The notes under the pieces: generated by a model
The model's input: the letters and a program-made list of their open reading frames with translations, nothing else
The model's database searches: none
What the model was told of the DNA's origin: nothing
Part shown: piece by piece, positions 6,404 to 57,605 of the stretch
How positions within the stretch are numbered: position 1 is the stretch's first letter
Layout: each line of letters begins with the position of its first letter
Made by a program: the position numbers and the translations under genes
Origin: Verrucomicrobiia bacterium
GTDB taxonomy: Bacteria; Verrucomicrobiota; Verrucomicrobiia; Limisphaerales; UBA1319
Direction: 5' to 3'
NCBI GenBank assembly: GCA_963664225.1
Contig: OY760937.1
Location: 2,560,001 to 2,624,000 of the forward strand
DNA length: 64,000 nucleotides

Positions 6404-8485
6404 TGAATTGGGTGGTTTGGAAGGTGGACGAACATGCCGCTCCGCTGGAGCTTGAATTTCGTGGTTGTCGGATTTCTATAAACATGGCGCCCCTACGGAG
6501 CTTCTATTTGTGACCCATCGGGTGGAGAGGCACGCGTTCATTGGAATGGGTCTGCGACCCCTGCCGGGATCGTGTTGGCTGGGGTGCGTGTCCGGGGGTG
6601 TCAGTCGCGGACGACCTCGACCCCCGGCTAATCGCTGGCATCCCTGCTGGGATGCTTGGATTTCGTGGTAGTTGGATTTCTATAAACATGGCGCTCCTAC
6701 GGAGCTTCTATTTGCGATCCACCGGGTGGAGTGGCACGCGTTCATTGGAAAGGGTCTGCGATCCCTGCCGGGATCGTGTTGGCTGGGGTGCGTGTCCGGG
6801 GGTGTCAGTCGCGGACGACCTCGACCCCCGGCTAATCGCTGGCATCCCTGCCGGGATGCTTGAATTTCGTGGGTGTTCCGTTTTAAGAACATGCCGCTCC
6901 GCTGGAGCTTGGATTTCGTGGTAGTTGGATTTCTATAAACATGGCGCTCCTATGAAGCTTCTATTTGCGATCCACCGGGTGGAGAGGCACGCGTTCATTG
7001 GAAAGGGTCCGCGACCCCTGCCGGGATCGTGTTCGCTGGGGTGCGTGTCCGGGGGTGTCAGTCGAGGACGACCTCGACCCCCGGCTAATCGCTGGCATCC
7101 CTGCCGGGATGCTTGAATTTCGTGGTTGTTGGATTTCTATAAACATGGCGCTCCTACGGAGCTTCTATTTGCCATCCACCGGGTGGAAAGGCACGCGTTC
7201 ATTGGAAAGGGTCTGCGATCCCTGCCGGGATTGTATTGGTTGGGGTGCGTGTCCGGGGGTGTCAGTCGCGGACGACCTCGACCCCCGGCTAATCGCTGGC
7301 ATCCCTGCCGGGATGCTCGAATTTCGTTGTTGTCGGATTTCTATAAACATGGCGCTCCTACGGAGCTTCTATTTGCGATCCACCGGGTGGAGAGGCACGC
7401 GTTCATTGGAATGGGTCTGCAATCCCTGCCGGGATCGTGTTGGCTGGGGTGCGTGTCCGGGGGTGTCAGTCGCGGACGACCTCGACCCCCGGCTAATCGC
7501 TGGCATCCCTGCCGGGATGCTTGAATTTCGTGGTTGTTGCATTTCTATAAACATGGCGCTCCTATGGAGCTTCTATTTGCGATCCACCGGGTGGAGAGGC
7601 ACGGGTTACAAAGGGACGCCATGTGGGGTTGGTTGAGGGAAGAATGGAGGATGGATAGTCGAAAGTGGTCGCGGAATGAATTGGGTGGTTTGGAAGGTGG
7701 ATAAACATGCCGCTCCGCTGGAGCTTGAATTTCGTTGTTGTTTGATTTCTATAAACATGTCGCTCCTACGGAGCTTCAATTTGAGACCCATCGGGTGGAG
7801 AGGCACGCGTTCATTGGAATGGGTCTGCAATCCCTGCCGGGATCGTGTTGGCTGGGGTGCGTGTCCGGGGGTGTCAGTCGCGGACGACCTCGACCCCCGG
7901 CTAATCGCTGGCATCCCTGCCGGGATGCTTGAATTTCGTGGTTGTTGCATTTCTATAAACATGGCGCTCCTACGGAGCTTCTATTTGCGATCCACCGGGT
8001 GGAGAGGCACGCGTTCATTGGAATGGGTCTGCGATCCCTGCCGGGATCGTGTTGGCTGGGGTGCGTGTCCGGGGGTGTCAGTCGCGGACGACCTCGACCC
8101 CCGGCTAATCGCTGGCATCCCTGCCGGGATGCTTGAATTTCGTTGTTGTCGGATTTCTATAAACATGGCGCTCCTACGGAGCTTCTATTTGCGATCTACC
8201 GGGTGGAGAGGCACGCGTTCATTGGAAAGGGTCTGCGATCCCTGCCGGGATTGTATTGGTTGGGGTGCGTGTCCGGGGGTGTCAGTCGCGGACGACCTCG
8301 ACCCCCGGCTAATCGCTGGCATCCCTGCCGGGATGCTTGAATTTCGTTGTTGTCGGATTTCTATAAACATGGCGCTTCTACGGAGCTTCTATTTGCGATC
8401 CACCGGGTGGAGAGGCACGCGTTCATTGGAATGGGTCCGCGACCCCTGCCGGGATCGTGTTGGCTGAGGTGCGTGTCCGGGGGTG
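6404..8485 (+). repeat. Tandem array of 204-bp composite REP-like units (8 full, 2 partial) in two blocks
   Basis: Unit marker tttctataaacat at 6473, 6677, 6930, 7134, 7338, 7542, 7746, 7950, 8154, 8358. Hairpins GCTCC-TAC-GGAGC, CCGGGGGT...ACCCCCGG and CATCCC-TGCC-GGGATG in each full unit. Confidence 0.95.
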
Positions 8486-8756
8486 TATGGAGGGAATCGT
8501 TTGAATGGGAAATAGAATGATCGTGGGCGTTACGAATTGGCGCAGGCAATCGGATTATCGAGAGGGTTGCAAATATTCAAGCTCCCCTTGATTCGAATGC
8601 TGCGCCGTCTGAAGACGGGACTCCATACAAAACCCTCGGACGCCGGGCGCCAGTAGGTATGGAGTGGAATATGTGTTCCGATTCAGGGCTGGTTGAGTCT
8701 CCAATGGCGTTTTATTGTATTTCCGCGGACCGGAGGATGCAGTTTTGCGCCCTGTG

Positions 8757-8923
8757 AGTTTGAGACGGTTGGCGGATTGGAAATCCGCGATACGGCAGGA
8801 TGTCTGCGCTACGGGTGGTGAAGCGCAATTTCGCTCCAGTCTGTGGAGTCCGCTGCCGACTTACATTCCATGGAGCGTCTGATAGTTCGCTCGATTGCAG
8901 GTTGGAAACCTGCGAAACGGCAG
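8757..8923 (+). repeat. REP-like units of the ...TCTGCGCTAC family; the last is split by IS110 copy 1 and resumes at 10121
   Basis: Same 129-bp unit as at 17833-18158 and 19356-19502. Confidence 0.85.
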
Positions 8924-8931
8924 CAACGGTG

Positions 8932-9870
8932 TCATGGAGCAACACAGAATCTGGGATCTTTTAGGGCATGATTCATCAATACGATGAGTTTCCGCATCAC
9001 TGCTGTCAGCGCCACTTTGGGCTTCTTGCCCGCCGCCCGCAGCCTCTTATAAAAGGCCTTGAGGATGGAATTGCAGCGCACCGCTGCCACGGAGGCCATG
9101 TAGAGGGCGCGGCGCACCCCGGTCCGGCCGCCACCAATGTGACGCTGGCCTTCCCAAGGGCCGCTCTGGCGCACCCACGGGGCCAGCCCCGCCAGGGCTG
9201 CCGCCTGGCCCCGGTTGAGGGTTCCCAGTTCGGGCATCTGCGCCACTACCGTCACGGCCGTCAGCATCCCCACGCCGGGAATTTCCGCCAGGCGGGTGAC
9301 TTGTTTTTGCTCGACGGCGTGGCGGGCCAGGGCGGCGGTTAATTCGGCCAGCACTGCGGCCAAACGGCTTTCCAGATGCCGTATCAGCTTGGCGTGTTCG
9401 GTGCGGACGAAGGGTGAGTCGTGGTGTTCGGCCTGATTTTTGGCGATGGTCAGGAGATCTTTGAGTTGTTCGCGCCAGGTCACCAGGGCGGTGAGCTCAG
9501 TGTGGGCTGGCGTCGGGGCGGTGGTGGCAGCGGGCTCCAGGGCCTTGCCGAAGGCGCTCAGGCTGGCAGCATCGATCGGATCGCTCTTGGCCCGCTGGCC
9601 GGTGGCGCGGGCGAAGGCACGGGTCTGGGCCGGGTTGACCACGCTGACGGGTAAACCGGCCGTGTGAAGTGCCGCCACGACGGCACGCTCATAGCCGCCA
9701 GTGGCTTCGAGGATCACGTGGGCACCGGGCACAGCACCCAGACATTGGACCAGTTGTGTGTGCCCCGCCGCATCGTTGGTCACGTCCAGGAGCCGTCCGG
9801 GAAGGTGAAGTTGGAGAGTGGCCTTGGCGACGTCCAGACCGACATGGACAGGGGCGGATTTTTCAGTCAT
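8932..9870 (-). CDS. IS110 DEDD recombinase/transposase (312 aa from MTEKS)
   Basis: GLDVAK, LEATGGY and KSDPID (DEDD); IPGVG, RQSG (catalytic Ser region), GGR..VR.ALYM and A.MRKL. Confidence 0.96.
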   Translation of the reverse strand: MTEKSAPVHVGLDVAKATLQLHLPGRLLDVTNDAAGHTQLVQCLGAVPGAHVILEATGGYERAVVAALHTAGLPVSVVNPAQTRAFARATGQRAKSDPIDAASLSAFGKALEPAATTAPTPAHTELTALVTWREQLKDLLTIAKNQAEHHDSPFVRTEHAKLIRHLESRLAAVLAELTAALARHAVEQKQVTRLAEIPGVGMLTAVTVVAQMPELGTLNRGQAAALAGLAPWVRQSGPWEGQRHIGGGRTGVRRALYMASVAAVRCNSILKAFYKRLRAAGKKPKVALTAVMRKLIVLMNHALKDPRFCVAP

Positions 9871-10105
9871 AATATTAAAGTTGTTCGGACTCATTCTTGC
9901 AAATACGAGCTGGCGTTGTAACACGCCGCTCTGGTAACGGTTCGAGTTTCGGACAAAGGCGAGCGCGATTCATGCTGCCGTACGGTCTGGCTTTCACCAG
10001 ACCAAGATTGGAACGAACACGCGTCCGCCGTCCCTTCCCCGCCTGCAGGCGGGGAAGGGACACCACTTCTTTCTTGTTCAACGCGAACCAACAAACAAGT
10101 GGCAA
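9871..10105 (-). ncRNA. Predicted IS110 bridge RNA, copy 1 (ends approximate)
   Basis: 5' hairpin (perfect 32-bp palindrome 10030-10061). Target loop: TTCCAATCT (10013-10005), stem GGTCTGG/CCAGACC, ACGGCAG (9981-9975). Donor loop: ACCGTTAC (9941-9934), stem, TGCAAG (9901-9896). Confidence 0.85.
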
Positions 10106-10191
10106 ATTCAAACATACAAGACTGGAAGTCTGCGCTACGGGTGGCGCGGGGGTGGGGACACCCCGGCCTTCAGGGTCGTGGGTTTATTCGA

Positions 10192-17750: not shown

Positions 17751-18158
17751 TGGAAGTTAGCCGGGATGTATCTGACGATTGACTTGAAAGGTCTTAATGG
17801 CGCGTGGCGCAGGTTCTCAACATTCCGGATCGCCGACTCACAGTCAATGGGGCGCCTGATAGTTCGCTCGATTGCAGGTTGGAAACCTGCGAAACGGCAG
17901 ACTGGAAGTCTGCGCTACGGGTTGTGAAGCGCAATTTCGCTCCAGTCTGTGGAGTCCGCTGCCGACTCACAGTCAATGGGGCGCCTGATAGTTCGCTCGA
18001 TTGCAGGTTGGAAACCTGCGAAACGGCAGACTGGAAGTCTGCGCTACGGGTGGTGAAGCGCAATTTCGCTCCAGTCTGTGGAGTTCGCTGCCGACTTACA
18101 TTCCATGGAGCGTCTGATATTTCGCTCGATTGCAGGTTGGAAACCTGCGAAACGGCAG
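17751..18158 (+). repeat. Leader plus tandem 129-bp REP-like units (empty IS110 targets at 17899 and 18028; occupied at 18157)
   Basis: gcaggttggaaacctgcgaaacggcagactggaagtctgcgctac recurs at a 129-bp period. Confidence 0.92.
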
Positions 18159-18166
18159 CAACGGTG

Positions 18167-19105
18167 TCATGGAGCAACACAGAATCTGGGATCTTTTAGG
18201 GCATGATTCATCAATACGATGAGTTTCCGCATCACTGCTGTCAGCGCCACTTTGGGCTTCTTGCCCGCCGCCCGCAGCCTCTTATAAAAGGCCTTGAGGA
18301 TGGAATTGCAGCGCACCGCTGCCACGGAGGCCATGTAGAGGGCGCGGCGCACCCCGGTCCGGCCGCCACCAATGTGACGCTGGCCTTCCCAAGGGCCGCT
18401 CTGGCGCACCCACGGGGCCAGCCCCGCCAGGGCTGCCGCCTGGCCCCGGTTGAGGGTTCCCAGTTCGGGCATCTGCGCCACTACCGTCACGGCCGTCAGC
18501 ATCCCCACGCCGGGAATTTCCGCCAGGCGGGTGACTTGTTTTTGCTCGACGGCGTGGCGGGCCAGGGCGGCGGTTAATTCGGCCAGCACTGCGGCCAAAC
18601 GGCTTTCCAGATGCCGTATCAGCTTGGCGTGTTCGGTGCGGACGAAGGGTGAGTCGTGGTGTTCGGCCTGATTTTTGGCGATGGTCAGGAGATCTTTGAG
18701 TTGTTCGCGCCAGGTCACCAGGGCGGTGAGCTCAGTGTGGGCTGGCGTCGGGGCGGTGGTGGCAGCGGGCTCCAGGGCCTTGCCGAAGGCGCTCAGGCTG
18801 GCAGCATCGATCGGATCGCTCTTGGCCCGCTGGCCGGTGGCGCGGGCGAAGGCACGGGTCTGGGCCGGGTTGACCACGCTGACGGGTAAACCGGCCGTGT
18901 GAAGTGCCGCCACGACGGCACGCTCATAGCCGCCAGTGGCTTCGAGGATCACGTGGGCACCGGGCACAGCACCCAGACATTGGACCAGTTGTGTGTGCCC
19001 CGCCGCATCGTTGGTCACGTCCAGGAGCCGTCCGGGAAGGTGAAGTTGGAGAGTGGCCTTGGCGACGTCCAGACCGACATGGACAGGGGCGGATTTTTCA
19101 GTCAT
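18167..19105 (-). CDS. IS110 DEDD recombinase/transposase, copy 2
   Basis: Protein identical to copy 1. Confidence 0.96.
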   Translation of the reverse strand: MTEKSAPVHVGLDVAKATLQLHLPGRLLDVTNDAAGHTQLVQCLGAVPGAHVILEATGGYERAVVAALHTAGLPVSVVNPAQTRAFARATGQRAKSDPIDAASLSAFGKALEPAATTAPTPAHTELTALVTWREQLKDLLTIAKNQAEHHDSPFVRTEHAKLIRHLESRLAAVLAELTAALARHAVEQKQVTRLAEIPGVGMLTAVTVVAQMPELGTLNRGQAAALAGLAPWVRQSGPWEGQRHIGGGRTGVRRALYMASVAAVRCNSILKAFYKRLRAAGKKPKVALTAVMRKLIVLMNHALKDPRFCVAP

Positions 19106-19340
19106 AATATTAAAGTTGTTCGGACTCATTCTTGCAAATACGAGCTGGCGTTGTAACACGCCGCTCTGGTAACGGTTCGAGTTTCGGACAAAGGCGAGCG
19201 CGATTCATGCTGCCGTACGGTCTGGCTTTCACCAGACCAAGATTGGAACGAACACGCGTCCGCCGTCCCTTCCCCGCCTGCAGGCGGGGAAGGGACACCA
19301 CTTCTTTCTTGTTCAACGCGAACCAACAAACAAGTGGCAA
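19106..19340 (-). ncRNA. Predicted IS110 bridge RNA, copy 2 (ends approximate)
   Basis: Sequence reads identical to 9871-10105. Confidence 0.85.
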
Positions 19341-19355
19341 ATTCAAACATACAAG

Positions 19356-24232: not shown

Positions 24233-24337
24233 GGAGCGTCGGCCCGATTTGTTTGGATACGTGACAAAACTCAGGAGTGTGGAAAACGGCTATGGCGGTG
24301 CAGTGATTTTAAATAGGTTTTGCGGCAACGGCAGAAC

Positions 24338-25016
24338 CAGCGGGCGGAGCTTGGGGCGGATTTGGAACCGTTGGATTTAAAAACGTCGTAAGCCAGTCAG
24401 GAGACCGGCGCTCCGGGGACACCAGCGGGCGGAGCTTGGGACGGATTTGGAACCGTTGGATTTAAAAACGTCGTAAGCCGGTCAGGAGACCGGCGCTCCG
24501 GGGACAGCAGCGGGCGGAGCTTGGGACGGATTTGGAACCGTTGGATTTAAAAACGTCGTAAGCCAGTCAGGAGACCGGCGCTCAGGGACAACAGCGGGCG
24601 GAGCTTGGGGCGGATTTGGAACCGTTGGATTTAAAAACGTCGTAAGCCGGTCAGGAGACCGGCGCTCAAGGACAACAGCGGGCGGAGCTTGGGGCGGATT
24701 TGGAACCGTTGGATTTAAAAACGTCGTAAGCCAGTCAGGAGACCGGCGCTCAGGGACAACAGCGGGCGGAGCTTGGGGCGGATTTGGAACCGTTGGATTT
24801 AAAAACGTCGTAAGCCAGTCAGGAGACCGGCGCTCCGGGGACAGCAGCGGGCGGAGCTTGGGGCGGATTTGGAACCGTTGGATTTAAAAACGTCGTAAGC
24901 CAGTCAGGAGACCGGCGCTCCGGGGACAGCAGCGGGCGGAGCTTGGGGCGGATTTGGAACCGTTGGATTTAAAAACGTCGTAAGCCGGTCAGGAGACCGG
25001 CGCTCCGGGGACAGCA
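24338..25016 (+). repeat. Eight tandem 84/85-bp units, each with REP-like GCC(A/G)GTCAGGAGACCGGCGCTC
   Basis: Unit starts at 24338, 24423, 24508, 24592, 24676, 24760, 24845, 24930. Confidence 0.96.
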
Positions 25017-25108
25017 AATGTATTGCCAGCAAACAGGCGTTGTGTCATTTCAATGGCACACATTACCGAACCAATAAACACGCTGACGCGACGCGACCTG
25101 GAATGATT

Positions 25109-32417: not shown

Positions 32418-32588
32418 TTCTAACGGGCCATTGAAGACTGGGGTGGGGAAAGTGGGGTCTGGAGGTGTTTCATCCAGACCTCACCTATCCTCAAATCCCG
32501 TGAATGGGGGGGGCGCCGCACGCCATTCAAACATTCGCAAACATTCGCAGACATTCGCCATGAGAGCCGCGTCATGGGATTGGGTGCA

Positions 32589-32751
32589 TGACAAAACTCA
32601 GGAGTGTGGAAAACAGCCATGGCGGTGCGCTGATTTTAAGTCGGCATTGAGGCAACGACAGAACCAGTGTGCGGGGTTCGAGGGGCATTTGAAAACGATG
32701 GATTAAAGAGCGCTTTAAGCCGGTCTGGAGACCGGCGCTCCGAAGACAGCA
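32589..32751 (+). repeat. Single diverged copy of the ~165-bp element whose 3' half is amplified at 24338-25016
   Basis: tgacaaaactcaggagtgtggaaaac...gccggtctggagaccggcgctcc matches 24262-24420. Confidence 0.85.
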
Positions 32752-32913
32752 GTCACCCTATTTACTCCACTGGCATTTTTTGGCCTTCTTCTGCTGGCAA
32801 TAGAATTTTGTCCTGGGCGTCATGGCATTCCAAGTCCAATTCGGGCGTTGCGTCGGGACCTCATTTCGGCTACTCGTGTGTTCGTTAAGACAATGATAAA
32901 CGCAGATCGAGAT

Positions 32914-46639: not shown

Positions 46640-48022
46640 ATGAGATTCATCAAAACATTTTCTGCAATTGTGGCGGCATTTGCGGGTTTTTTCCTTTGCG
46701 CGTCCGCACAAGCCCAATTCGATTACACGACCAATAACGGCACCATCACCATCACCAAATACACTGGCCAAGGCGGTGCAGTGACCATTCCTGACACAAT
46801 CAGTGGTCTGCCGGTCGCCACCATTGGAACCAATGCGTTTTATCGCTGTGATAGCCTGACCAACATTACGATAGGCACCAGTGTCACCAGCATTGAAAAC
46901 TCGGCTTTCTCTAGCTGCCACAGTTTGATAAACGTCACGATTCCAAATAGCCTTTGCAGCATTGGGATTTATGCGTTCTTTTGGTGCAGCAGCCTGACCA
47001 ATATGACTATCCCAAACGGCGTTACTAACATCGGAAGCGGTGCGTTTAGTCAATGTTCCAACCTGTCCAAAATCACGATCCCCAACAGCGTTATCAGCAT
47101 CGGGAACAATGCTTTTTCCTTTTGTTCCAGCCTGGCCAGCATCACGATCCCCAATAGTGTCGTCAGCATTGGAAGCTGTGCGTTTGCGCCCTGTCCCAAT
47201 TTGGAAGCAATCGCCGTGAATGAAAACAACTCCACCTATAGCAGCCTGGCTGGTGTATTGTTCGACAAGAGTCAGGCCACGCTGATTCAATATCCGGGGA
47301 GCCAATCCAGAATCTATACGGTCCCCAACAGTGTTACCCGCATCGGGGATTCCGCGTTCTCTGACTGCTATAGCCTGGCCAGCGTCACAATCCCCAACAG
47401 CGTTACTAACATCGGGGACGGAACGTTCCATAGGTGTTGCAGTCTGACCAATGTCACGCTTCCCAACAATCTCACCAATATCGGTGATGGAATGTTCTTT
47501 GCCTGTATTAGGCTGAATAGTGTCACAATCCCCAACAGCGTCACCAGAATCGGTGGTTCTGCGTTCTACTACTGTGAAAATTTAACCAACGTTACGATCC
47601 CTAATACCGTCACCACTTTAGGTGATGCTGCGTTCCTTGACTGTATCAGCCTGACTCACATCTATTTTCAAGGTGACGCCCCCAGCCTTGAAAGACATTT
47701 GTGCTTCAATGGCTCCAATGCGACCATCTATTATCTACCGGGCACCACCGGCTGGGGCACTACCTACGGCAGTCGTCCGACTGCATTGTGGACACCGCTG
47801 GTACAAACCACCGATGCCACCTTTGGCGTGAGGAGCAATCAATTCGGTTTTAACATCAACTGGGCCAGTGGACAAACCGTCGTGGTGGAAGCCTGCACAA
47901 ATCCGGTCAATCCCACATGGTCTGCCCTGCAAACCAAAACCCTTACCGATGACTCCTTCTATTTCAGCGATCCCGAGTGGACGAATTATCCCACACGCAT
48001 CTACCGTCTGCGAGTTCCGTAG
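46640..48022 (+). CDS. BspA-type (LRR_5) leucine-rich repeat surface protein
   Basis: Signal peptide; 23-aa repeats (TIPNSVTxIGxxAFxxCxxL); conserved C-terminal domain. Confidence 0.92.
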   Translation: MRFIKTFSAIVAAFAGFFLCASAQAQFDYTTNNGTITITKYTGQGGAVTIPDTISGLPVATIGTNAFYRCDSLTNITIGTSVTSIENSAFSSCHSLINVTIPNSLCSIGIYAFFWCSSLTNMTIPNGVTNIGSGAFSQCSNLSKITIPNSVISIGNNAFSFCSSLASITIPNSVVSIGSCAFAPCPNLEAIAVNENNSTYSSLAGVLFDKSQATLIQYPGSQSRIYTVPNSVTRIGDSAFSDCYSLASVTIPNSVTNIGDGTFHRCCSLTNVTLPNNLTNIGDGMFFACIRLNSVTIPNSVTRIGGSAFYYCENLTNVTIPNTVTTLGDAAFLDCISLTHIYFQGDAPSLERHLCFNGSNATIYYLPGTTGWGTTYGSRPTALWTPLVQTTDATFGVRSNQFGFNINWASGQTVVVEACTNPVNPTWSALQTKTLTDDSFYFSDPEWTNYPTRIYRLRVP

Positions 48023-48041
48023 GGATGGAGACGTTTTCACC

Positions 48042-48081
48042 GGTTTCCGGTTCAAGTCCGGACCGAGGCACCACTTTTTTC
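48042..48081 (+). repeat. 40-bp direct repeat of the tRNA-Lys 3' end (attR-like; partner 46382-46421)
   Basis: ggtttccggttcaagtccggaccgaggcaccacttttttc is present at both sites. Confidence 0.95.
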
Positions 48082-48231
48082 TCCGCATTCTCCCCTTCGC
48101 ATTCGAACGTTTTTCAGAATTACCAACGGTGGATCCATTGCCACCGGATGCGGCGGATTATTTCTCCCGGGTGGTGGGGCGCGTGATTATTCTTGTCAGG
48201 TTTCTCCATTGGCGGCTGTTTATTGATTGAG

Positions 48232-49650
48232 ATGCAGACGAATTCAGACGCCCAGTTGCTCCGTGAATACACCGAAAATGGTGGTGAGGCGGCTTTCACC
48301 GAAATCGTCTCCCGGCACATGGATCTGGTGTATTCGGCGGCGCTGAGGCAGGTGGCATCGCCTGATCTTGCCCGCGATGTGGCCCAAAGCGTTTTTATCG
48401 ATCTTGCCCGCAAAGCACCGTCTCTGGTGCGTAAGCAAGACTCTGGCACCTGGTTGATTGGATGGCTTTACCGCAGCACGCGGTTTGCGGCACTGACGTT
48501 GGTGCGCGGCGAGCGTCGCCGCGAGGCGCGCGAAATTCAAGCCATGCAAGACTCCAATCCTGATTCTGAAGTATCACCTGACTGGGACCACGTTCGGCCC
48601 AATTTGGACGAAGCGATGGCGAGCCTGAGCGCTGCGGATCGGGATGCGTTGCTGATGCGGTTCTTCAAAAACCAGGATTATCGAGCGGTCGGCGCGGCCA
48701 TCGGGGTCAGCGAAAACACGGCGCAGCAGCGTGTATTGCGCGCGCTCGAGAAGCTCCGCAAGAGCCTGGCGCGCCAGGGAATCACAACCTCCACCGCCGC
48801 GCTTTCCATGGCCCTTTCCGCCAATGCCGTTCAGGCCGCGCCTGTCGGACTGGCCGCGACCATTTCCGCACTGGCCGTGATGGCCGGTCCCGCCCTATCC
48901 ACCACAACCGCAATCGCCGCCGTAAAAACCATTGCCATGACCACTCTACAAAAGACGTTGATCACCGCGACCCTCGCCGCCGCTGTGGGAACAGGAATCT
49001 ATGAAGCCCGCCAGGCTTCCAGTTTGCGATGCCGTGTCCAGACCCTCGAACAAGAGCAAGCGCCACTGATGGCGCAAATTCAGAAGTTACAGCAGGAACG
49101 CAACGACGCCACGAACCAGTTGGCGCTGATGTCCGAGGCCACGTCCCGCGCCAATAGCAATACGATCGAACTGCTCCGGCTTCGCAGCGCCGTGGGAACG
49201 CTGCGCCAGCGCACCAACGAGCTGGGCAAACTGTTGCAGGACACGGTGGCGGCGAATCAAACATCGCAGGGGTCACTTGGACAGACCAACTTCCCGAGGG
49301 ATTCCTGGACTTTCGCCGGGTTTGCCACGCCCGAGGATGCGATTCAATCCTTTATGTGGGCCAAGAGCCGCGGCGAGGTGAAAACGGCTTTAAGCTCGGC
49401 CACACCGGAGCTGAAGCAGGAATTAATGGTTCGCTATTTCAAAGACAAAACGGACGAGGAGATCTCGGCGGCGTTGATTGATTCGGCAAAGGATCAAACG
49501 GGAATTCAAGTTCTAAAGAAGATGGCAGCGGCGGAAGATCAAGTCGTTTATCAAATCCACATTGATGGAACGCCCGATGCTTCCTACTCGCTGTTGACGA
49601 TGAAGAAAATTGATGGCGAATGGAAAGTCTCCGGCAACGAGGATCGCTAA
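48232..49650 (+). CDS. ECF sigma-70 factor with long C-terminal extension
   Basis: Region 2 (AFTEIV.RH..LVYSAALR, DVAQSVF..LARKA, GWLYR) and region 4; then an Ala-rich hydrophobic stretch, a coiled coil and a globular tail. Confidence 0.9.
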   Translation: MQTNSDAQLLREYTENGGEAAFTEIVSRHMDLVYSAALRQVASPDLARDVAQSVFIDLARKAPSLVRKQDSGTWLIGWLYRSTRFAALTLVRGERRREAREIQAMQDSNPDSEVSPDWDHVRPNLDEAMASLSAADRDALLMRFFKNQDYRAVGAAIGVSENTAQQRVLRALEKLRKSLARQGITTSTAALSMALSANAVQAAPVGLAATISALAVMAGPALSTTTAIAAVKTIAMTTLQKTLITATLAAAVGTGIYEARQASSLRCRVQTLEQEQAPLMAQIQKLQQERNDATNQLALMSEATSRANSNTIELLRLRSAVGTLRQRTNELGKLLQDTVAANQTSQGSLGQTNFPRDSWTFAGFATPEDAIQSFMWAKSRGEVKTALSSATPELKQELMVRYFKDKTDEEISAALIDSAKDQTGIQVLKKMAAAEDQVVYQIHIDGTPDASYSLLTMKKIDGEWKVSGNEDR

Positions 49651-49844
49651 AATGGAAGTGAGACTGCAACGGCAGTAGAATCTCTAACGGGCTTCGCTAT
49701 TTTCCACCGCCTGAATATTGTCCTGCGCCTGCTGCATCTGGAGATTCAAAAGCGCGATGGTCAGAGGCGGGCAAAGCCACTACATTTGGGCATTGCCTGT
49801 CACCTGTGAGAATGATTTTCAGATTGTGACCGTGCGCTTATAAA

Positions 49845-50915
49845 ATGAAAACAGACTTTTTCCGCCTTCTCTTTGGAACGATGCAGGCGTGGGTTGCGAT
49901 GGCGGGGGTGGCTCTGCCGCTTGGGGCCGCTGAATTCAAGCCGGGCGAGGTCTGGCTGGACACCGAGGGCAAGCCGATCCAGGCGCATGGCGGCGGGATA
50001 CTGGTTCAGGAGGGCGCCTACTATTGGTATGGCGAGGATAAAACGCTCGGGAACATGAACAAGACGGGCATCTCGTGCTACTCCTCCACGAATCTTTACG
50101 ACTGGAAGCATGTGGGAGTCGTATTGCCCAAGGAAGCCATGCCGCCGCAATTTCAGGATCGCGGAGTCGTGGAGCGGCCCAAAGTCCTCTACAATGCGCG
50201 GACCCGAAAATACGTGATGTGGATGCATCTGGACGATCGGGGTTATCACGCGGCCAGCGCGGGCATTGCCACAGCGGATTCCCCTGCCGGACCTTTTGTG
50301 TTCCTGCATAAAATGCGGCCCATTCAATTCGACGTCGGTTATAAGGAGACCGATCCGGATCACCAAAAAGAGCTTGGCGGGACGTATCGCGACATGAACC
50401 TGTTCCTGGACAGCGACGGCAAGGCGTATGCGTTTTATGCGTCGGAGGGAAACGCCACGCTGTATGTGGTGCGATTAAACGAGGACTTCACCGGACCGCA
50501 AACTCCGGCGGAACAAGGCAAGACCTGGGCCCGGGTACGGGTGGGCGAGTTTCAAGAAGCTCCCGCGCCATTCAAGCATGGGAACCGCTACTATTTGATC
50601 ACATCGCATTGCACCGGTTGGGCTCCAAATCCCGCCAGCTACGCGGTGGCCGACAACATACTTGGACCCTGGGTGGTCAAGGGCAATCCGTGCGTGGGCG
50701 CTGAAGCGGAAACCACGTTTCGTTCTCAAAGCACCTTTGTCCTGCCGGTGGCCGGTAAACCCGGATGCTTTATTTTCATGGCGGATCGGTGGTTGAGCAA
50801 AACCCTGCAAGACTCCCGATATATCTGGCTGCCGCTCATTCTCAAGCCGGACGGTTCGTTTACATTGGAGTGGCGGGATCAATGGGATTTGTCGGTGCTT
50901 GACAGCACAAAGTAG
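49845..50915 (+). CDS. Glycoside hydrolase family 43 (subfamily 24-like)
   Basis: IQAHGGGI, YYWYGE, ERPKV.YN, RDMNLF, EAPA.FK and SQSTF. Confidence 0.88.
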   Translation: MKTDFFRLLFGTMQAWVAMAGVALPLGAAEFKPGEVWLDTEGKPIQAHGGGILVQEGAYYWYGEDKTLGNMNKTGISCYSSTNLYDWKHVGVVLPKEAMPPQFQDRGVVERPKVLYNARTRKYVMWMHLDDRGYHAASAGIATADSPAGPFVFLHKMRPIQFDVGYKETDPDHQKELGGTYRDMNLFLDSDGKAYAFYASEGNATLYVVRLNEDFTGPQTPAEQGKTWARVRVGEFQEAPAPFKHGNRYYLITSHCTGWAPNPASYAVADNILGPWVVKGNPCVGAEAETTFRSQSTFVLPVAGKPGCFIFMADRWLSKTLQDSRYIWLPLILKPDGSFTLEWRDQWDLSVLDSTK

Positions 50916-51041
50916 CATGGCCTCGATATCAGAATCCATGGGTGGATTCCGGTTCTGGAGCCAACGCGTCAATGTTGGATTCAAGTGTGCTGGCTGATTA
51001 TTTGTTTGACATAACGGACCGTTTTCGTTACACACGTAATC

Positions 51042-53297
51042 ATGGACCAAAAACAAGTGTCTCCATGTTTTGCAAGAACCGTCCGTCCTAATACAACACC
51101 TGTGCTTTTAAGAACCGCCGATGCCAGGACGTTGCTGCCGACTCTCCTGGTTCTATTACTGGTGTTTGCGTTGCCCGCTGCGCTCCAGGCGCAATTCCAT
51201 TACTCAACTAATTTCGGAAGCATCACCATAACGAGTTACACCGGGTCCGGGGATGTAGTCAGCATTCCGGATGTCATTGAGGGTTTGCCAGTCACAAGCA
51301 TAGGCGACAACGCATTTTATTACTGCAGAAACCTTAGAAGCATCACGATCCCCAACAGCGTCACCATCATAGGAACCAGAGCTTTCCAAAACTGCTTCAA
51401 ACTGGCGGACATTACGATCCCCGATGGTGTCACCACGATCAGGGATGGAGCGTTCTACAATTGCGGTAGCCTGACGAGCATCACGATCCCCGACAGTGTC
51501 ACCAATCTCGGGGATTTCGTTTTCTTTAGCTGCGGCCTGACGAATATCACGATTGGCAAAGGCGTCACCAGCTTGGGATACGATTTATTCGATTATTGCT
51601 TCGGGCTGAAAAGCATTACGATACACGACAACATCACCAGTATCGGGGACGATACATTCCGTTATTGCACTAATTTGACGGACGTCACGATCCCCGAAAG
51701 CGTCACCAGTCTCGGGCATGAGGTTTTCAATGAATGCACGAGCCTGACGAATGTCACGATTGGCAAAGGTGTCACCAACCTCTCGATCAGCGTGTTCAAC
51801 GATTGCACGAGTTTGAAATCAATTACAGCAGATGAGCTCAATCCTTCCTATCGGAGCATAGATGGGGTTTTGTTCAACAAAGATCAAACCACGCTCATTC
51901 GATTCCCGCTAAATAAGACCGGAAGTTATACCCTCTCCGATGGCGTCACCCTCATTGGGGACGGTGCGTTCTCCGCATGCACTGGCCTGACAAACATCAC
52001 AATAGGAAAGGGCATCAGCAATATTGGGGATAATCAATTCAATGGCTGCAGCAATCTGAAAAGCATCACGATTCCCAATAGCGTCGCAAACATCGGAAAT
52101 GGAGCTTTTATTAACTGCGTCAGTCTGACAGACATCTCTATTCCCAATAGCGTCGCAAACATTGGCGATTATGGGTTCGCGAATTGCGCCAGCCTGGCAA
52201 ACATCACGATCCCCAGCGGCGTCTATACCTTGGGAGCTTATGCGTTCACCAAATGCACCAATCTGACAAACGTTACGATCCTCAACGGTATTGCCACCAT
52301 CAGGGATTGGACGTTCGATAACTGCCTCAACCTTCAAACGGTGACAATTCCTGAAAGTGTCGCCAGTATCGGAGCTCGGGTGTTCAATAACTGCACGAGC
52401 CTGACTGATATTACTATTCCAGACAGGGCTCGCAGTATTGGTGAATATACGTTCAATAACTGCACGAGTCTGGAATACGTTACGATACCTAATAGTGTCA
52501 TAACCATTAAAACGTGCGCGTTCTTTAACTGCACCAGTCTGACAAACATCACAATCCCCGACAGTGTCACCAGCATCGAAAGCTACACGTTTTACAATTG
52601 CACGAGCCTGAAAGGCATTACGATAGGCAAAGGTCTCAGCAGCATGGGCTGGCGTGCATTGTCCGGTTGCACGAGTTTGTCCGGAATCACGGTGGATGAA
52701 CACAATTCCTACTACTCGAGTTTTGCCGGTTCACTTTTTAATAAGAAGAAGACCGAACTTATTCAATTTCCAATAATGCAGACTGGAAATTATGCGATTC
52801 CCAATACCGTCACCACTATTGCGGGCTTTGCGTTTTCTTCTGCAAGATTGGGCCTCATCACCATTCCCAATAGTGTCACCAACATTGCATTCAGCACGTT
52901 CTCCTACTGCTCAAGCCTGACCAACGTCTATTTTCAAGGTAACGCTCCCGGCATTGACTCGTATGTGTTCGATGGCGCCAACAACGCAACCGTCTATTAC
53001 CTGCCGGGGACCACAGGCTGGGCTGCATCCTTCGGCGGTCGGCCGACAGCTCCGTGGGTTCTTCCGAACCCGCTGATCTTAAATTACGGTTCCGGCTTTG
53101 GCGCGAATACCAACGGCTTCGGTTTCGTCATCTCCTGGGCCACGAACGCGACCGTCGTCGTGGAAGCGTGTGACGACCTCACCAATTCCGGCTGGTCACC
53201 GCTTCAAACCAACGCCCTCGTCAACGGCTCATCCTATTTCAGCGATTCCGAGTGGGTCAATTATCCCGGACGGCTCTACCGCCTGCGCATGCCATAA
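51042..53297 (+). CDS. BspA-type LRR surface protein
   Basis: LRR_5 repeats; conserved C-terminal domain ending YRLRMP. Confidence 0.92.
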   Translation: MDQKQVSPCFARTVRPNTTPVLLRTADARTLLPTLLVLLLVFALPAALQAQFHYSTNFGSITITSYTGSGDVVSIPDVIEGLPVTSIGDNAFYYCRNLRSITIPNSVTIIGTRAFQNCFKLADITIPDGVTTIRDGAFYNCGSLTSITIPDSVTNLGDFVFFSCGLTNITIGKGVTSLGYDLFDYCFGLKSITIHDNITSIGDDTFRYCTNLTDVTIPESVTSLGHEVFNECTSLTNVTIGKGVTNLSISVFNDCTSLKSITADELNPSYRSIDGVLFNKDQTTLIRFPLNKTGSYTLSDGVTLIGDGAFSACTGLTNITIGKGISNIGDNQFNGCSNLKSITIPNSVANIGNGAFINCVSLTDISIPNSVANIGDYGFANCASLANITIPSGVYTLGAYAFTKCTNLTNVTILNGIATIRDWTFDNCLNLQTVTIPESVASIGARVFNNCTSLTDITIPDRARSIGEYTFNNCTSLEYVTIPNSVITIKTCAFFNCTSLTNITIPDSVTSIESYTFYNCTSLKGITIGKGLSSMGWRALSGCTSLSGITVDEHNSYYSSFAGSLFNKKKTELIQFPIMQTGNYAIPNTVTTIAGFAFSSARLGLITIPNSVTNIAFSTFSYCSSLTNVYFQGNAPGIDSYVFDGANNATVYYLPGTTGWAASFGGRPTAPWVLPNPLILNYGSGFGANTNGFGFVISWATNATVVVEACDDLTNSGWSPLQTNALVNGSSYFSDSEWVNYPGRLYRLRMP

Positions 53298-53532
53298 GGC
53301 ACCAAGGCACGGACGTGCTCCAGCAGAAATTGAAAATGGAATGGCGCGGCAAATGGGGCCGGCGCGTCTTAGAGGGAACAAGGTTTTAAGCAAAAGCTTT
53401 TTTGGTGGATTTTATAATTGGATGCAGGTTCTGGAGCCTTCCACAGTTGTGAAACAGAGACCAATTTCGAGGTTCGCCGGATGTCTGTGGATTTCTTGAT
53501 ATATCAGCCCGCGCATGGCATCCTGAATCAAG

Positions 53533-55227
53533 GTGTTCATAAGAAAATTACAAGGTCCCGTCTGTTTTACGAGAACCGCCAATGCCACGAGGTTGATGCT
53601 CATTGTCCTATTGCTGGCATTACCCGCCGCGCTGCTGGCCCAATTCGATTACACGACGAATGACGGCGCGATCACGATCACGAATTATACCGGCGGCGAA
53701 GGCGCGGTCACCGTCCCGGATGTGATCGACGGCCTGCCGGTCACCAGAATCGCCAACAATGCGTTTCTTTCCTGCTACGGGCTGACCAACATCATGATTG
53801 GCGGCAGCGTGACCAACATCGGGGCCGCGGCGTTCAATGGCTGCACGAATCTGGGGGCCATCACCATGGACGACCTCAATCCTGTTTATGCGAGTCTGGC
53901 CGGGGTTTTGTTCGATAAGAATCTGACCGCGCTCATTCAATATCCGGTTGGCCACGGTGCAGACTATACGATCCCCGGCAGTGTCACCCGCATCGGGGCC
54001 GCGGCATTCTACAATTGCACCGGTCTGACCAACATCCTGATCGGCGACAGCGTCACCCGCATCGGTAATAGCGCGTTCTACAACTGCAGCGGTCTGACCC
54101 AGCTCACGCTTCCCAACAGCGTCACCAACATCGGGGCCGGGGCGTTCTCAAGCTGCGCCAGTCTGACTGACATCGCGATTCCCGACAGTGTGATCGAACT
54201 CCAGGATGGGACGTTCGACAATTGCTCCAGTCTGACCAACGTGACGATCCCCGATGGCGTTGCCAACATTGGGAATTATGCGCTCTCCGGGTGCGCGAGC
54301 CTGACCGCCGTGGAGCTCCCCAACGGAGTCACCAACATCGGGGTTGGAGCCTTTTCCAACTGCTCGAGCCTGACCAATATCGCGGTTCCCAACGGCGTTA
54401 CCAACATCGGGGCGGCGGCGTTTGCGAACTGCTACAACCTCACCAACATCACGCTGCCCGGCAGCGTTGCCAGCATCGGGTGGAACGCGTTCGGGAATTG
54501 CACCAACCTGGCGAGCATGACGATCCCCGACTGCGTCACCACCATCAACAACGAAACTTTCCGATGTTGTTACAACATGACCAATGTCACATTTTTAGGG
54601 AGTAACATTACCAGCATCGGATCCGGGGCCTTTGGGGATTGCACCTTGCTGAGCGGCGTCGCGATCCCCAACGGCGTCATCAGCATCGGGGATGGCGCGT
54701 TCTCCTGGTGTCGGAGTCTGACCAACGTCACGATACCCGAGAGCCTGACCAGCATTGGGACCGAATCGTTCAATTATTGCACCAGCCTGACCAACCTCAC
54801 GATACCAAACAGCGTCACCCGCATTGGAGATGGCGCGTTCGCCGGATGCAGCGGCCTGACCGGCATTTTTTTCGAAGGCAACTCCCCCAGCGTGGGTTCC
54901 TCTCCATTCGTTTATGCCGAACGTGTGACCGTCTATTACCTGCCGGGAACCACGGGCTGGGAGGCGACCTTTGGGGGGCGTCCGACCGCATTGTGGAATC
55001 CGGAGCCGCTTACCATCGATGCGAGCCTTGGCCGACCGACCAATTACTTCGGATTCAACATCACCGGTGCCAGCAACCTGGTTGTCGTTGTGGAAGGCTG
55101 CACCAATCTGACCAGTCCCACCTGGTTCCCGCTCCAAACCAACACGCTCACCGACGGTATTTTCTATTTCAGCGATCCTGAGTGGACCAATTATTCCGGA
55201 CGGTTCTATCGGTTGCGCGTGCCGTGA
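53533..55227 (+). CDS. BspA-type LRR surface protein (start uncertain)
   Basis: LRR_5 repeats; ends FYRLRVP. Confidence 0.92.
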   Translation: MFIRKLQGPVCFTRTANATRLMLIVLLLALPAALLAQFDYTTNDGAITITNYTGGEGAVTVPDVIDGLPVTRIANNAFLSCYGLTNIMIGGSVTNIGAAAFNGCTNLGAITMDDLNPVYASLAGVLFDKNLTALIQYPVGHGADYTIPGSVTRIGAAAFYNCTGLTNILIGDSVTRIGNSAFYNCSGLTQLTLPNSVTNIGAGAFSSCASLTDIAIPDSVIELQDGTFDNCSSLTNVTIPDGVANIGNYALSGCASLTAVELPNGVTNIGVGAFSNCSSLTNIAVPNGVTNIGAAAFANCYNLTNITLPGSVASIGWNAFGNCTNLASMTIPDCVTTINNETFRCCYNMTNVTFLGSNITSIGSGAFGDCTLLSGVAIPNGVISIGDGAFSWCRSLTNVTIPESLTSIGTESFNYCTSLTNLTIPNSVTRIGDGAFAGCSGLTGIFFEGNSPSVGSSPFVYAERVTVYYLPGTTGWEATFGGRPTALWNPEPLTIDASLGRPTNYFGFNITGASNLVVVVEGCTNLTSPTWFPLQTNTLTDGIFYFSDPEWTNYSGRFYRLRVP

Positions 55228-55379
55228 GATGGAGGGAAACTACCCACGTATTGAAAGGGAGAAGCGACAAAGCCGCAATGCGCCCCGTGACAATCTTTTA
55301 GCGCAATTCGATTTGACAGCGGGATACGCTTCTGAAACTCTGCAGTTTCGCTGGTCTGTTGTTCTTGTCGGAATAATAA

Positions 55380-57605
55380 GTGGAGGAACATTACGTGTCG
55401 CACAATAAAAAAACGAAGTGTGCTTTTGCCTGGAAATTGGTTGCACTGCTGGCGTTTCTGCTTGTCTGCCAACCTGGCCAGACTCTCGGCCAGACTTATG
55501 ATTACTTCAAATACTCGGTCAGTGGCAGCAACGTGACAATTACAGGGTACTTCGGCCTTGGTGGCGCGGTCACAATACCCGACTCAATACCGGAAGTGGG
55601 AACAGTCACCTCCATCGAAAAGAACGCGTTCTTGAATTGCACCAGCCTGACCTACATCACCATTCCCAGCAGCGTCATCACCATAGGAGACGCAGCGTTC
55701 GCCAGATGCACTGGTCTGACCGGCGTCACCATCCCCAGCAGCGCCGCCTCTATCGGAGATCGGGCGTTCGCCTTCTGCAGCAGCCTAATTGCCATTAATG
55801 TAGATTCAAACAACGCTTCCTATAGCAGTCAAAACGGTGTGCTTTTCAACAAGAGCCAGACAGTGCTCGTTCAGTATCCTGGAGGAATTAAAGGGACATA
55901 CACCATCCCCAACAGCGTCACATCCATCGGAGTTGCGGCGTTCCTCGCCACTGGCCTGACCGGCATCTCAATCCCCAACAGTGTCACCTCCATCGGAACC
56001 TACGCGTTCAACTGGTGCATCGATCTGACCGACATCACCATCCCTAACAGTGTCACCACAATTGGAAACGGAGCGTTCGGAGGCTGCACCAGTCTGATCA
56101 GCGTCACCATCCCTAACAGTGTCACCTCCATCGGAGACTACGCGTTCTCCGGTTGTTTCAGCCTGACAAACATCACCATCCCTAACGGAGTCACCTCTAT
56201 TGGAAACTACGCGTTTGGAGACTGTATCGGTCTGACCAGCATCATCATTCCAAATAGCGTAACCTCCCTGGGTGGCGGGGCATTCCAAAAATGTGCCGGT
56301 CTGACCAGTATCACCCTCCCTAACAGCGTCACATACATCGGAGACTGGACGTTCTATGGCTGCACCGACCTGACCAGCGTTACCATCCCCAGCAGCGTCA
56401 CCTCCATCGGAGGCAGTGCATTCGAAACCTGCACCGGCCTGACCAGCATTACCATACCAAACAGCGTCATCTCCATAGGTGATGCGGCGTTCGCCAACTG
56501 CGCCGGCCTGACCAACATCACCTTCCTGAACAGCGTGACATCCATTGGAGCGTTCGCGTTCAACAATTGCACGGGTTTGACCAACATCACCATCCCCAGT
56601 AGCGTTACCTCCATAAAATACGAGGCATTCGGCAGATGCACCGGCCTAATTGCCTTTAATGTTGATTCAAACAACGCTTCCTATAGTAGTCAAAACGGTG
56701 TGCTTTTCAACAAAAGCCAGACAGCGCTCCTTCAGTATCCTCAAGGGATTAACGGAACATACACGATTTCCAACAGCGTCACCTCCATCGGAGTGATGGC
56801 GTTCGAAAACTGCACCGGCCTGACCGGCATTACCATACCAAACAGCGTCACCAACATAGATGCGGGGGCATTCTTTAGCTGCAGCGGTCTGACAAACATC
56901 ACGATCCCCAACAGTGTCACCTCCATTGGTGGCGGGGCATTCGAAAGCTGTACCGGTCTGACCAGTATCACCATCCCCAACAGTGTCGGCTCCATCGGAG
57001 ACTACGCATTCTTCAGTTGCACGGGCCTGACCCACATCACCGCCCTCAGTGGCGTCACCAACATCGGAGACAGCGCATTCTACAGTTGCACAGGTCTGAC
57101 AAACATAACGATCCCCAACAGCGTCACCTCCGTCGGAGAGCTGGCGTTCGCATGGTGCACCAGCCTGACCAGCGTCACCATCCCCAATAGTGTCACCTCC
57201 ATCGGAGGCTGGGCGTTCGAACGGTGCGCCAACCTGACCAGTGTCTATTTCCAGGGTAACGCTCCCAGTCTTGGAGGGTATGTTTTTGACGGCAGCCAGT
57301 ATACGACCGTCTATTACTTGCCCGGCACCACAGGATGGAGCACGGATTTTGGTGGTCTTCCGACGACATTATGGAATCCAATGCCTCTGGCTGGGGACAG
57401 CCGCTTTGGCGTGCGCACAAATCAGTTTGGATTTCAGATCACTGGTGCCAGCGGCATCATGGTCGTTGTGGAAACAGCCAGCACTCTGACCAATCCCATT
57501 TGGATACCTGTGCAAACAAACATCCTGGCCGGGGGAATAGCCGATTTTAGCGATCCCCAGTGGACGAATTATACCAGCAGGTTTTATCGTTTTCGCATGC
57601 CGTGA
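55380..57605 (+). CDS. BspA-type LRR surface protein (start uncertain)
   Basis: LRR_5 repeats; ends FYRFRMP. Confidence 0.92.

Follow-up and report, generated by a model that had tools for sequence, protein, structure and literature searches.

The window analysed here, a stretch of 64,000 nt from contig OY760937.1 of a Verrucomicrobiia bacterium (GCA_963664225.1; positions 2,560,001-2,624,000 of the forward strand), contained an intact IS110 element on the minus strand at window positions 8922-10120 (1199 nt counting both cores). The features of the element and its surroundings, in window coordinates, were as follows.

8890..8921, minus strand: right flank, with the right target and the second hairpin of the target repeat
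8922..8930, minus strand: left donor (7 nt) and right CT core, from copy comparison; with one further base these make up the whole right end
8932..9870, minus strand: IS110 recombinase gene (312 aa; PF01548 and PF02371; NF033542 over cut-off)
8937..8942, minus strand: predicted −35 box, in the last recombinase codons (T-T-G at 81, 75 and 73% of 73 joined ends)
9889..9947, minus strand: donor-binding loop, with left donor guide (LDG) 9941-9934, a stem with a bulged A, right donor guide (RDG) 9904-9896 and handshake bases 9895-9894; layout after PMC11208158
9954..10029, minus strand: target-binding loop, with an outer stem, left target guide (LTG) 10013-10005, inner stem-loop 10003-9984, right target guide (RTG) 9981-9975 and handshake bases 9974-9973; stem, guide-site and handshake covariation
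10030..10061, no strand: perfect 32-nt palindrome, spacer-less, directly 5' of the target-binding loop; possible arm for RNA-RNA pairing
10062..10103, minus strand: first 5' hairpin, irregular and bulged, from folding; directly after the predicted start
10111..10116, minus strand: predicted −10 box, from column conservation in 73 joined ends; missed by a promoter scan of the linear form
10119..10120, minus strand: left CT core, opening the left end; boundary common to five of five genomic copies
10121..10140, minus strand: left flank, made up of the target repeat's GTAG tag, hairpin arm and loop and ending with the left target
17880..18050, minus strand: two empty copies of the target repeat
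18157..19355, minus strand: second, identical copy of the element, within a 129-bp repeat array

The cores, at 10120-10119 and 8923-8922, were set by comparing five genomic copies (two of them inside the window), which were 99-100% alike and had a single common boundary. Removal of 1197 nt restored an empty site in all five, with a short core at both ends and no duplication beyond it. The recombinase could be aligned to the structures of IS621 (8WT6, E 7e-34) and ISCro4 (E 8e-33). Its residues D13, E55, D97, D100 and S236 were intact and invariant in nine of nine aligned rows; the presence of these catalytic residues agrees with an earlier note on this DNA, which had proposed an intact RNA-guided recombinase. 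Judged from sequence, the element would be catalytically competent and reprogrammable. In the contig sets of four public runs no circle junction was found, and the joints that were found skip the element and represent empty repeat copies; since contigs drop rare forms, this is not evidence of absence.

The same genome held five more copies of two related IS110 types, approximately 55% alike, which share the donor of the window element and carry different guides that, by copy comparison, fit their own sites. Type B1 was located at host positions G000:C1:771338 and 2701933, and type B2 at 1738663, 1794881 and 3172978; one B2 copy apparently has an in-frame stop and another a short deletion. Both types have one palindrome in common, unlike that of the window element. 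A decayed left-end fragment of 76 nt (G000:C1:3572930-3573005, 93% alike), the remnant of a sixth insertion, was found behind a TTCCAAC left target.

Read position by position, the left end consists of a 9-nt LTG, an inner stem, a GU linker, a 7-nt RTG and two handshake bases, followed by an 8-nt LDG, a stem with a bulged A, a GU linker and a discontinuous RDG. The earlier note had described an IS621-type bridge RNA of LTG-RTG-LDG-RDG architecture with a CT core. The architecture and its covariation with the insertion sites are borne out by sequence comparison: all segments named there occur on the minus strand in the given order (LTG, stem, RTG, LDG and RDG, as listed above), and the target TTCCAGT-CT-GCCGT and donor ACCGTTG-CT-TGTA are correct for both window copies. 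Two details were revised. The right donor guide is present, but rather than a continuous 6-mer it is better described as an IS621-like discontinuous 9-nt guide with two flipped U, which fits the donor. Instead of a single 5' hairpin there are two, and the second is the perfect palindrome.

When the non-coding end was shuffled 20,000 times with its dinucleotides preserved, no shuffle contained the four guides in order. The LDG matches the donor at seven of eight positions and fails only at donor position 7, which the IS621 papers describe as tolerant (PMC11208158, PMC11208160). Both target-loop handshake bases pair with donor positions 6-7, a setting that favours insertion (PMC13626964), and the donor-loop handshake pair fits one base in three of five sites. 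The LDG also tracks the donor across clades, a circular comparison in that right ends had been located with the LDG. The non-coding end folded with z = −7.0. A further revision concerns the fold: at minimum energy the LTG was partly paired within the loop, and support for the internal-loop model comes from the stems on either side, which covary. An Rfam search of the left end gave no matching family (best E 0.18).

The predicted −35 and −10 boxes are spaced by 17 nt only when the ends are joined, and the pattern TTG ... TAnnnT was conserved in the sequences of the 73 joined ends. Joined ends would form a junction promoter expressing a predicted RNA of approximately 230 nt. By analogy, the first 5' hairpin is likely the counterpart of the IS621 5' stem-loop. 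On the plus strand, a promoter-like site (10 of 12 positions) lies over the recombinase start codon at window 9845-9873, antisense into the bridge RNA; one such site was found against 0.4 expected.

For the comparison of relatives, 193 loci with a recombinase hit were collected from GTDB genomes (80), the host class (30; 29 of 301 genomes matched), the genome itself (3) and metagenomes (80 of 521). We dropped 99 loci, lacking a donor-loop anchor (49), a left end (31) or a right end (19). The remaining 94 gave 79 distinct target loops, with three mis-parsed rows kept in, the window element's own included. As the earlier note had expected of homologous elements, guides and targets covaried: guides agreed with their cognate sites at 13.5 of 16 positions and with non-cognate sites at 9.9, a difference reached by none of 20,000 permutations, although the relatives are not independent and the p-values therefore overstate. 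The cognate site was ranked first in only 57 of the 79 rows. In the stems flanking the loops, 92% of cells were paired and 19 of 29 pairs had changed on both sides (38 aligned ends), which none of 500 shuffles equalled; slid controls gave 28-43%. The first handshake base pairs with donor position 7 in 66 of 70 rows, two A-T switches among them. The closest relative (L010, 70%) is inserted in the same repeat family and has a near-identical guide. In a variant from run X9 (97-98% alike), a change at LTG position 7 produces an exact match to TTCCAAC sites and also repairs a stem mismatch.

The window element targets a GTAG-tagged double-hairpin repeat, specifically its first hairpin; the repeat forms 129-bp arrays within the window. 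REP sequences consist of a GTAG tag and then a short hairpin. The target repeat looks like a REP in having the tag and short hairpin, many copies and arrays; a single pattern retrieved 28 empty tagged copies. The inserted window copy lies 71 nt past the stop codon of a kinase gene, and three of the five restored sites are within stop-free frames of more than 200 aa, so that not every site may be extragenic. The left targets were TTCCAGT (two sites, both window copies), TTCCAAC (two) and ATCCTGT (one), and the right target was identical in all five. The proposal that the guide is programmed against a host REP repeat stands with some reservations. The GTAG hairpin repeat was hit in five of five copies, but no site in the genome matches the guide at 14 of 14 positions, and none of the nine PF01797 (Y1 transposase) hits that could represent a RAYT partner had the repeat hairpin within 1.5 kb.

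In each of the five filled sites the match to the 7-base right guide is complete, and in one of them the left guide is matched at only 6 of 9 positions. Among sites with at least 8 of 9 left matches (wobble allowed), 4 filled and 16 empty sites match the right guide at 7 of 7, compared with 0 filled and 579 empty sites where the right match is less; 26 perfect 11-base sites are all empty. The contrast between filled sites with a complete right match and empty 11-base sites indicates that the long right guide is apparently used. By sequence, the left guide is intermediate between the arm variants of the repeat. Hairpin shape may add to site choice, by analogy with ISPpu10, in which a target stem-loop raises efficiency (10.64898/2026.03.19.712850). 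A rival explanation holds that the match between left end and flanks arose by chance or hitch-hiking and that sites are picked by hairpin shape or by the protein alone. It would accommodate the five hairpin insertions out of five and the site with the 6/9 left match. We consider it highly improbable, as it is contradicted by the permutation test, the shuffle test and a single genome in which three sets of guides go with three classes of site.

The comparisons with IS621 rest on its published descriptions. With IS621 (PMC11208160, PMC11208158, PMC13626964) and ISCro4/IS622 (10.1101/2025.05.14.653916) the window element shares the RuvC-like DEDD and Tnp serine residues, the CT core, an LTG-RTG-LDG-RDG RNA in the left end, GU linkers and a bulged A in the donor loop, a discontinuous right donor guide, handshake bases, a promoter predicted across the joined ends and insertion in REP-like repeats. 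It differs from them in being distant in protein, in its own target and left donor, and in a right end of only about 8 nt. The right target guide is naturally 7 bases long, whereas IS621 uses 4, extended by engineering; longer natural right guides are mentioned in PMC11208160. The left end is approximately 45-50 nt longer than that of short-end relatives and has a second 5' hairpin, in contrast to the single 5' stem-loop of the published consensus. ISPpu10 and ISPpu9 of Pseudomonas putida (10.64898/2026.03.19.712850; PMC12288879) likewise insert into repeated hairpins, with the left target within a stem-loop and a stricter right guide; the published text examined does not mention a palindrome in their RNA. 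Further sources drawn on were 10.1101/2025.10.25.684509, 10.64898/2026.04.29.721476, 10.64898/2026.10.21.760802 and 10.64898/2026.08.31.748434. Earlier papers already describe the bridge class, its targeting of REP sequences, handshake pairing and right guides that are naturally longer. As a bridge system the element adds an orthologue whose right guide naturally has 7 bases, whose target-loop handshake is fully paired and whose right end is very short. In our view more weight falls on the palindrome, which went unnoticed in the earlier note and is the greater surprise. A description of such a palindrome, or of a dimer arm in a bridge RNA, was not found in the accessible IS110 and bridge-RNA literature (subscription papers and bioRxiv supplements lay outside the search), and a motif search of seven supplement files of PMC11208160, one of them truncated, retrieved no member of the palindrome clade. 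The 72 tested orthologues and 86 cluster models with deviating structures in bioRxiv supplements may include it.

The 32-nt palindrome sits between the first 5' hairpin and the target loop. Of the 136 distinct upstream regions compared, 44 of the 75 at 46% or more protein identity and 8 of the 61 below carried palindromes with arms of at least 12 bp. Downstream controls had 0 of 53 and 1 of 45, respectively, and coding DNA none. Arms were 16 bp in 33 of the 52 palindromes, which comprised 44 distinct sequences with TGCA (34), GGCC (11), CATG (6) or TTAA (1) at the centre; the centre varies yet remains self-complementary. GGCC centres require six changes on a quick tree of 125 proteins, at least five of them forced by well-supported branches. 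In 56 rows examined of a 60-row clade taken whole, an apex palindrome of at least 6 nt occurred in 48, versus 8, 2 and 4 for the other three hairpins. Pair counts for the palindrome from alignment A2 were left unused, because its rows had been picked for carrying a palindrome. Symmetry is lost in some long-end relatives (for example L094, L145, L178 and L044), and short-end alphaproteobacterial relatives lack the palindrome hairpin. In the host genome, 10 of 13 spacer-less palindromes of this size belong to these elements. Sequence comparison establishes the architecture, the covariation of guides with sites and of the handshake bases, and the conserved symmetry of the palindrome, and the element is very probably an intact IS621-type IS110 bridge element with a conserved symmetric module.

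Three other accounts of the palindrome were set aside. It is not an assembly artefact: 10 of 10 copies of the three types in one contig carry it, 44 versions occupy one position, and decayed forms exist. As an intrinsic terminator it has no U-tract and is absent from the terminator scan. An operator for a dimeric protein is unlikely in view of the three to four pair types at distal arm positions, though the centre is more conserved.

The roles proposed below for the palindrome are suggested by sequence. The symmetric centre is accounted for if two bridge RNAs of one element are joined through it by a 32-bp, three-turn duplex, an element-specific dimerisation arm built into the bridge RNAs of the clade. 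This is our leading reading, and we hold it tentatively. In folding predictions the full-length homodimer gained 16.5 kcal/mol with both loops still folded, and the gain over the 44 palindromes was 16.9 kcal/mol, versus 4.6 kcal/mol with asymmetric centres. The two palindrome types of the host were predicted to pair with themselves at −16.5 kcal/mol and with each other at 0.0. Two bridge RNAs per synaptic complex have been inferred, and dimers of complexes reported, for IS621 (PMC11208158). Self-complementary hairpin apices through which two copies can form a kissing or an extended duplex are known from HIV-1 DIS, MoMuLV PAL and the hatchet ribozyme (PMC7357161). The likeness is an analogy: here the whole hairpin is palindromic, dimerisation is a computed result, and the palindrome lacks purines like those that flank and open the HIV-1 kissing loop (PMC7357161), which counts against an RNA dimer. 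So do the short-end relatives and the published IS621 model, which have no palindrome, and the in vitro function of separated IS621 target and donor loops (PMC11208158).

Nor does a dimerisation arm predict the scarcity of G-U pairs, which made up 0.8% (5 of 599) of pairs in the palindrome versus 12-13% in neighbouring stems. Template switching during replication could explain both Watson-Crick-only arms and paired changes without intermediates. The palindrome would then be retained for its size as an ordinary hairpin that stabilises or spaces. Its perfection, that of the centre too, would be a by-product of the template switching, and the symmetric centre would have no function. There is support from proteobacteria for the correction of imperfect inverted repeats (PMC5941160). 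This explanation appears unlikely to us: the neighbouring long hairpin at the same end retains 12.5% G-U pairs and is unpolished, and only 3 of 57 perfect inverted repeats (arms of at least 12 bp) in the genome outside these elements are spacer-less. Moreover, a subclade of 16 rows with imperfect arms keeps a self-complementary GCGC or TGCA apex and an extra A in 15 of them, although this reflects one origin.

A role as DNA does predict Watson-Crick-only arms, since a G-T on one strand is an A-C on the other. The palindrome could act as a both-strand hairpin or cruciform approximately 72 bp from the crossover, in excision, in a single-stranded circle or in second-strand synthesis. The distance from DNA core to dyad centre was 72 nt in 18 of 33 rows and 70-72 nt in 28 of 33. 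The distance from dyad centre to guide was 32 nt in 25 of 33; both being about equally fixed, the distances do not decide between RNA and DNA. Cruciforms are not known to require a self-complementary loop, and a DNA role leaves the symmetric centre unexplained; in the alignment, too, no linker separates the palindrome from the target-loop stem. Single-stranded circles have been reported for IS621 and CazIS110-1. On balance we regard a DNA role as doubtful. If true, the palindrome would be an unrecognised cis element of IS110 transposition.

The fixed length of the palindrome and its place directly 5' of the target loop would also suit a site for double-stranded RNA processing or dosage control of the RNase III type. 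Cleavage of the hairpin, or of a 32-bp dimer whose formation would depend on concentration, might mature the 5' end of the RNA or limit expression at rising copy number; the recombinase start codon lies approximately 20 nt past the donor loop. RNase III is not known to require either a symmetric centre or Watson-Crick-only pairs. We judge a site of this type improbable.

For the element as a whole, a sequence of events can be proposed. Joining of the ends would create the donor site together with the promoter, composed of the −35 box in the last codons of the gene and the −10 box in the left end. The RNA would then comprise the 5' hairpin, the palindrome, a loop that binds the target and another that binds the donor. 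Left of the CT core the target loop would pair with the bottom strand, and right of the core, over 7 bases, with the top strand; it would thereby select the first hairpin of the GTAG repeat family while tolerating its arm variants. The donor loop would read the element's own junction, with the handshake bases favouring insertion. If the palindrome is a dimerisation arm, pairing of two same-element RNAs through it would keep the target loop of the first RNA close to the donor loop of its partner, assembling the two in advance, and the RNAs of co-resident elements with other palindromes would not mix. Donor-donor complexes are reported to cause off-target insertion, and co-expressed bridge RNAs to cross-react. 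If the proposal is correct, the arm, in its 44 distinct versions, would show how some elements organise a two-RNA complex. It would be a natural answer to both the two-RNA synaptic complex and cross-reactivity, and could be grafted onto engineered bridge RNAs.

The subclade with imperfect arms is well supported (L013, L124-L126, L130, L132, L136, L139, L145, L150, L151, L155, L163, L171, L182 and L185). Its apex is of the GCGCAA type, its right donor guide differs, and the standard left-end motif is missing from the usual distance; in the rows viewed, the right target guide was mostly common to them. More distant relatives (L058, L059, L068 and copies) have an AT core and GGCC-centred palindromes of up to 36 nt, and the guides of L058 and L059 still match their flanks. 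Two loci labelled as a Klebsiella bin (L020, L079) carry an element that groups with relatives from Verrucomicrobiota and Planctomycetota, and contamination of the bin is possible.

Other repeats were observed in the window. Approximately ten tandem 204-bp units, 89-94% alike in most copies, lie just past the right flank of the element (6431-8615). Units of 85 bp occur at 24253-25094 and 32580-32752, as two groups of three and a distant copy. Several genes at 46700-57600 contain 69-bp (23-codon) repeats, which from their period we take to be leucine-rich-repeat-like, and share a common 3' block.
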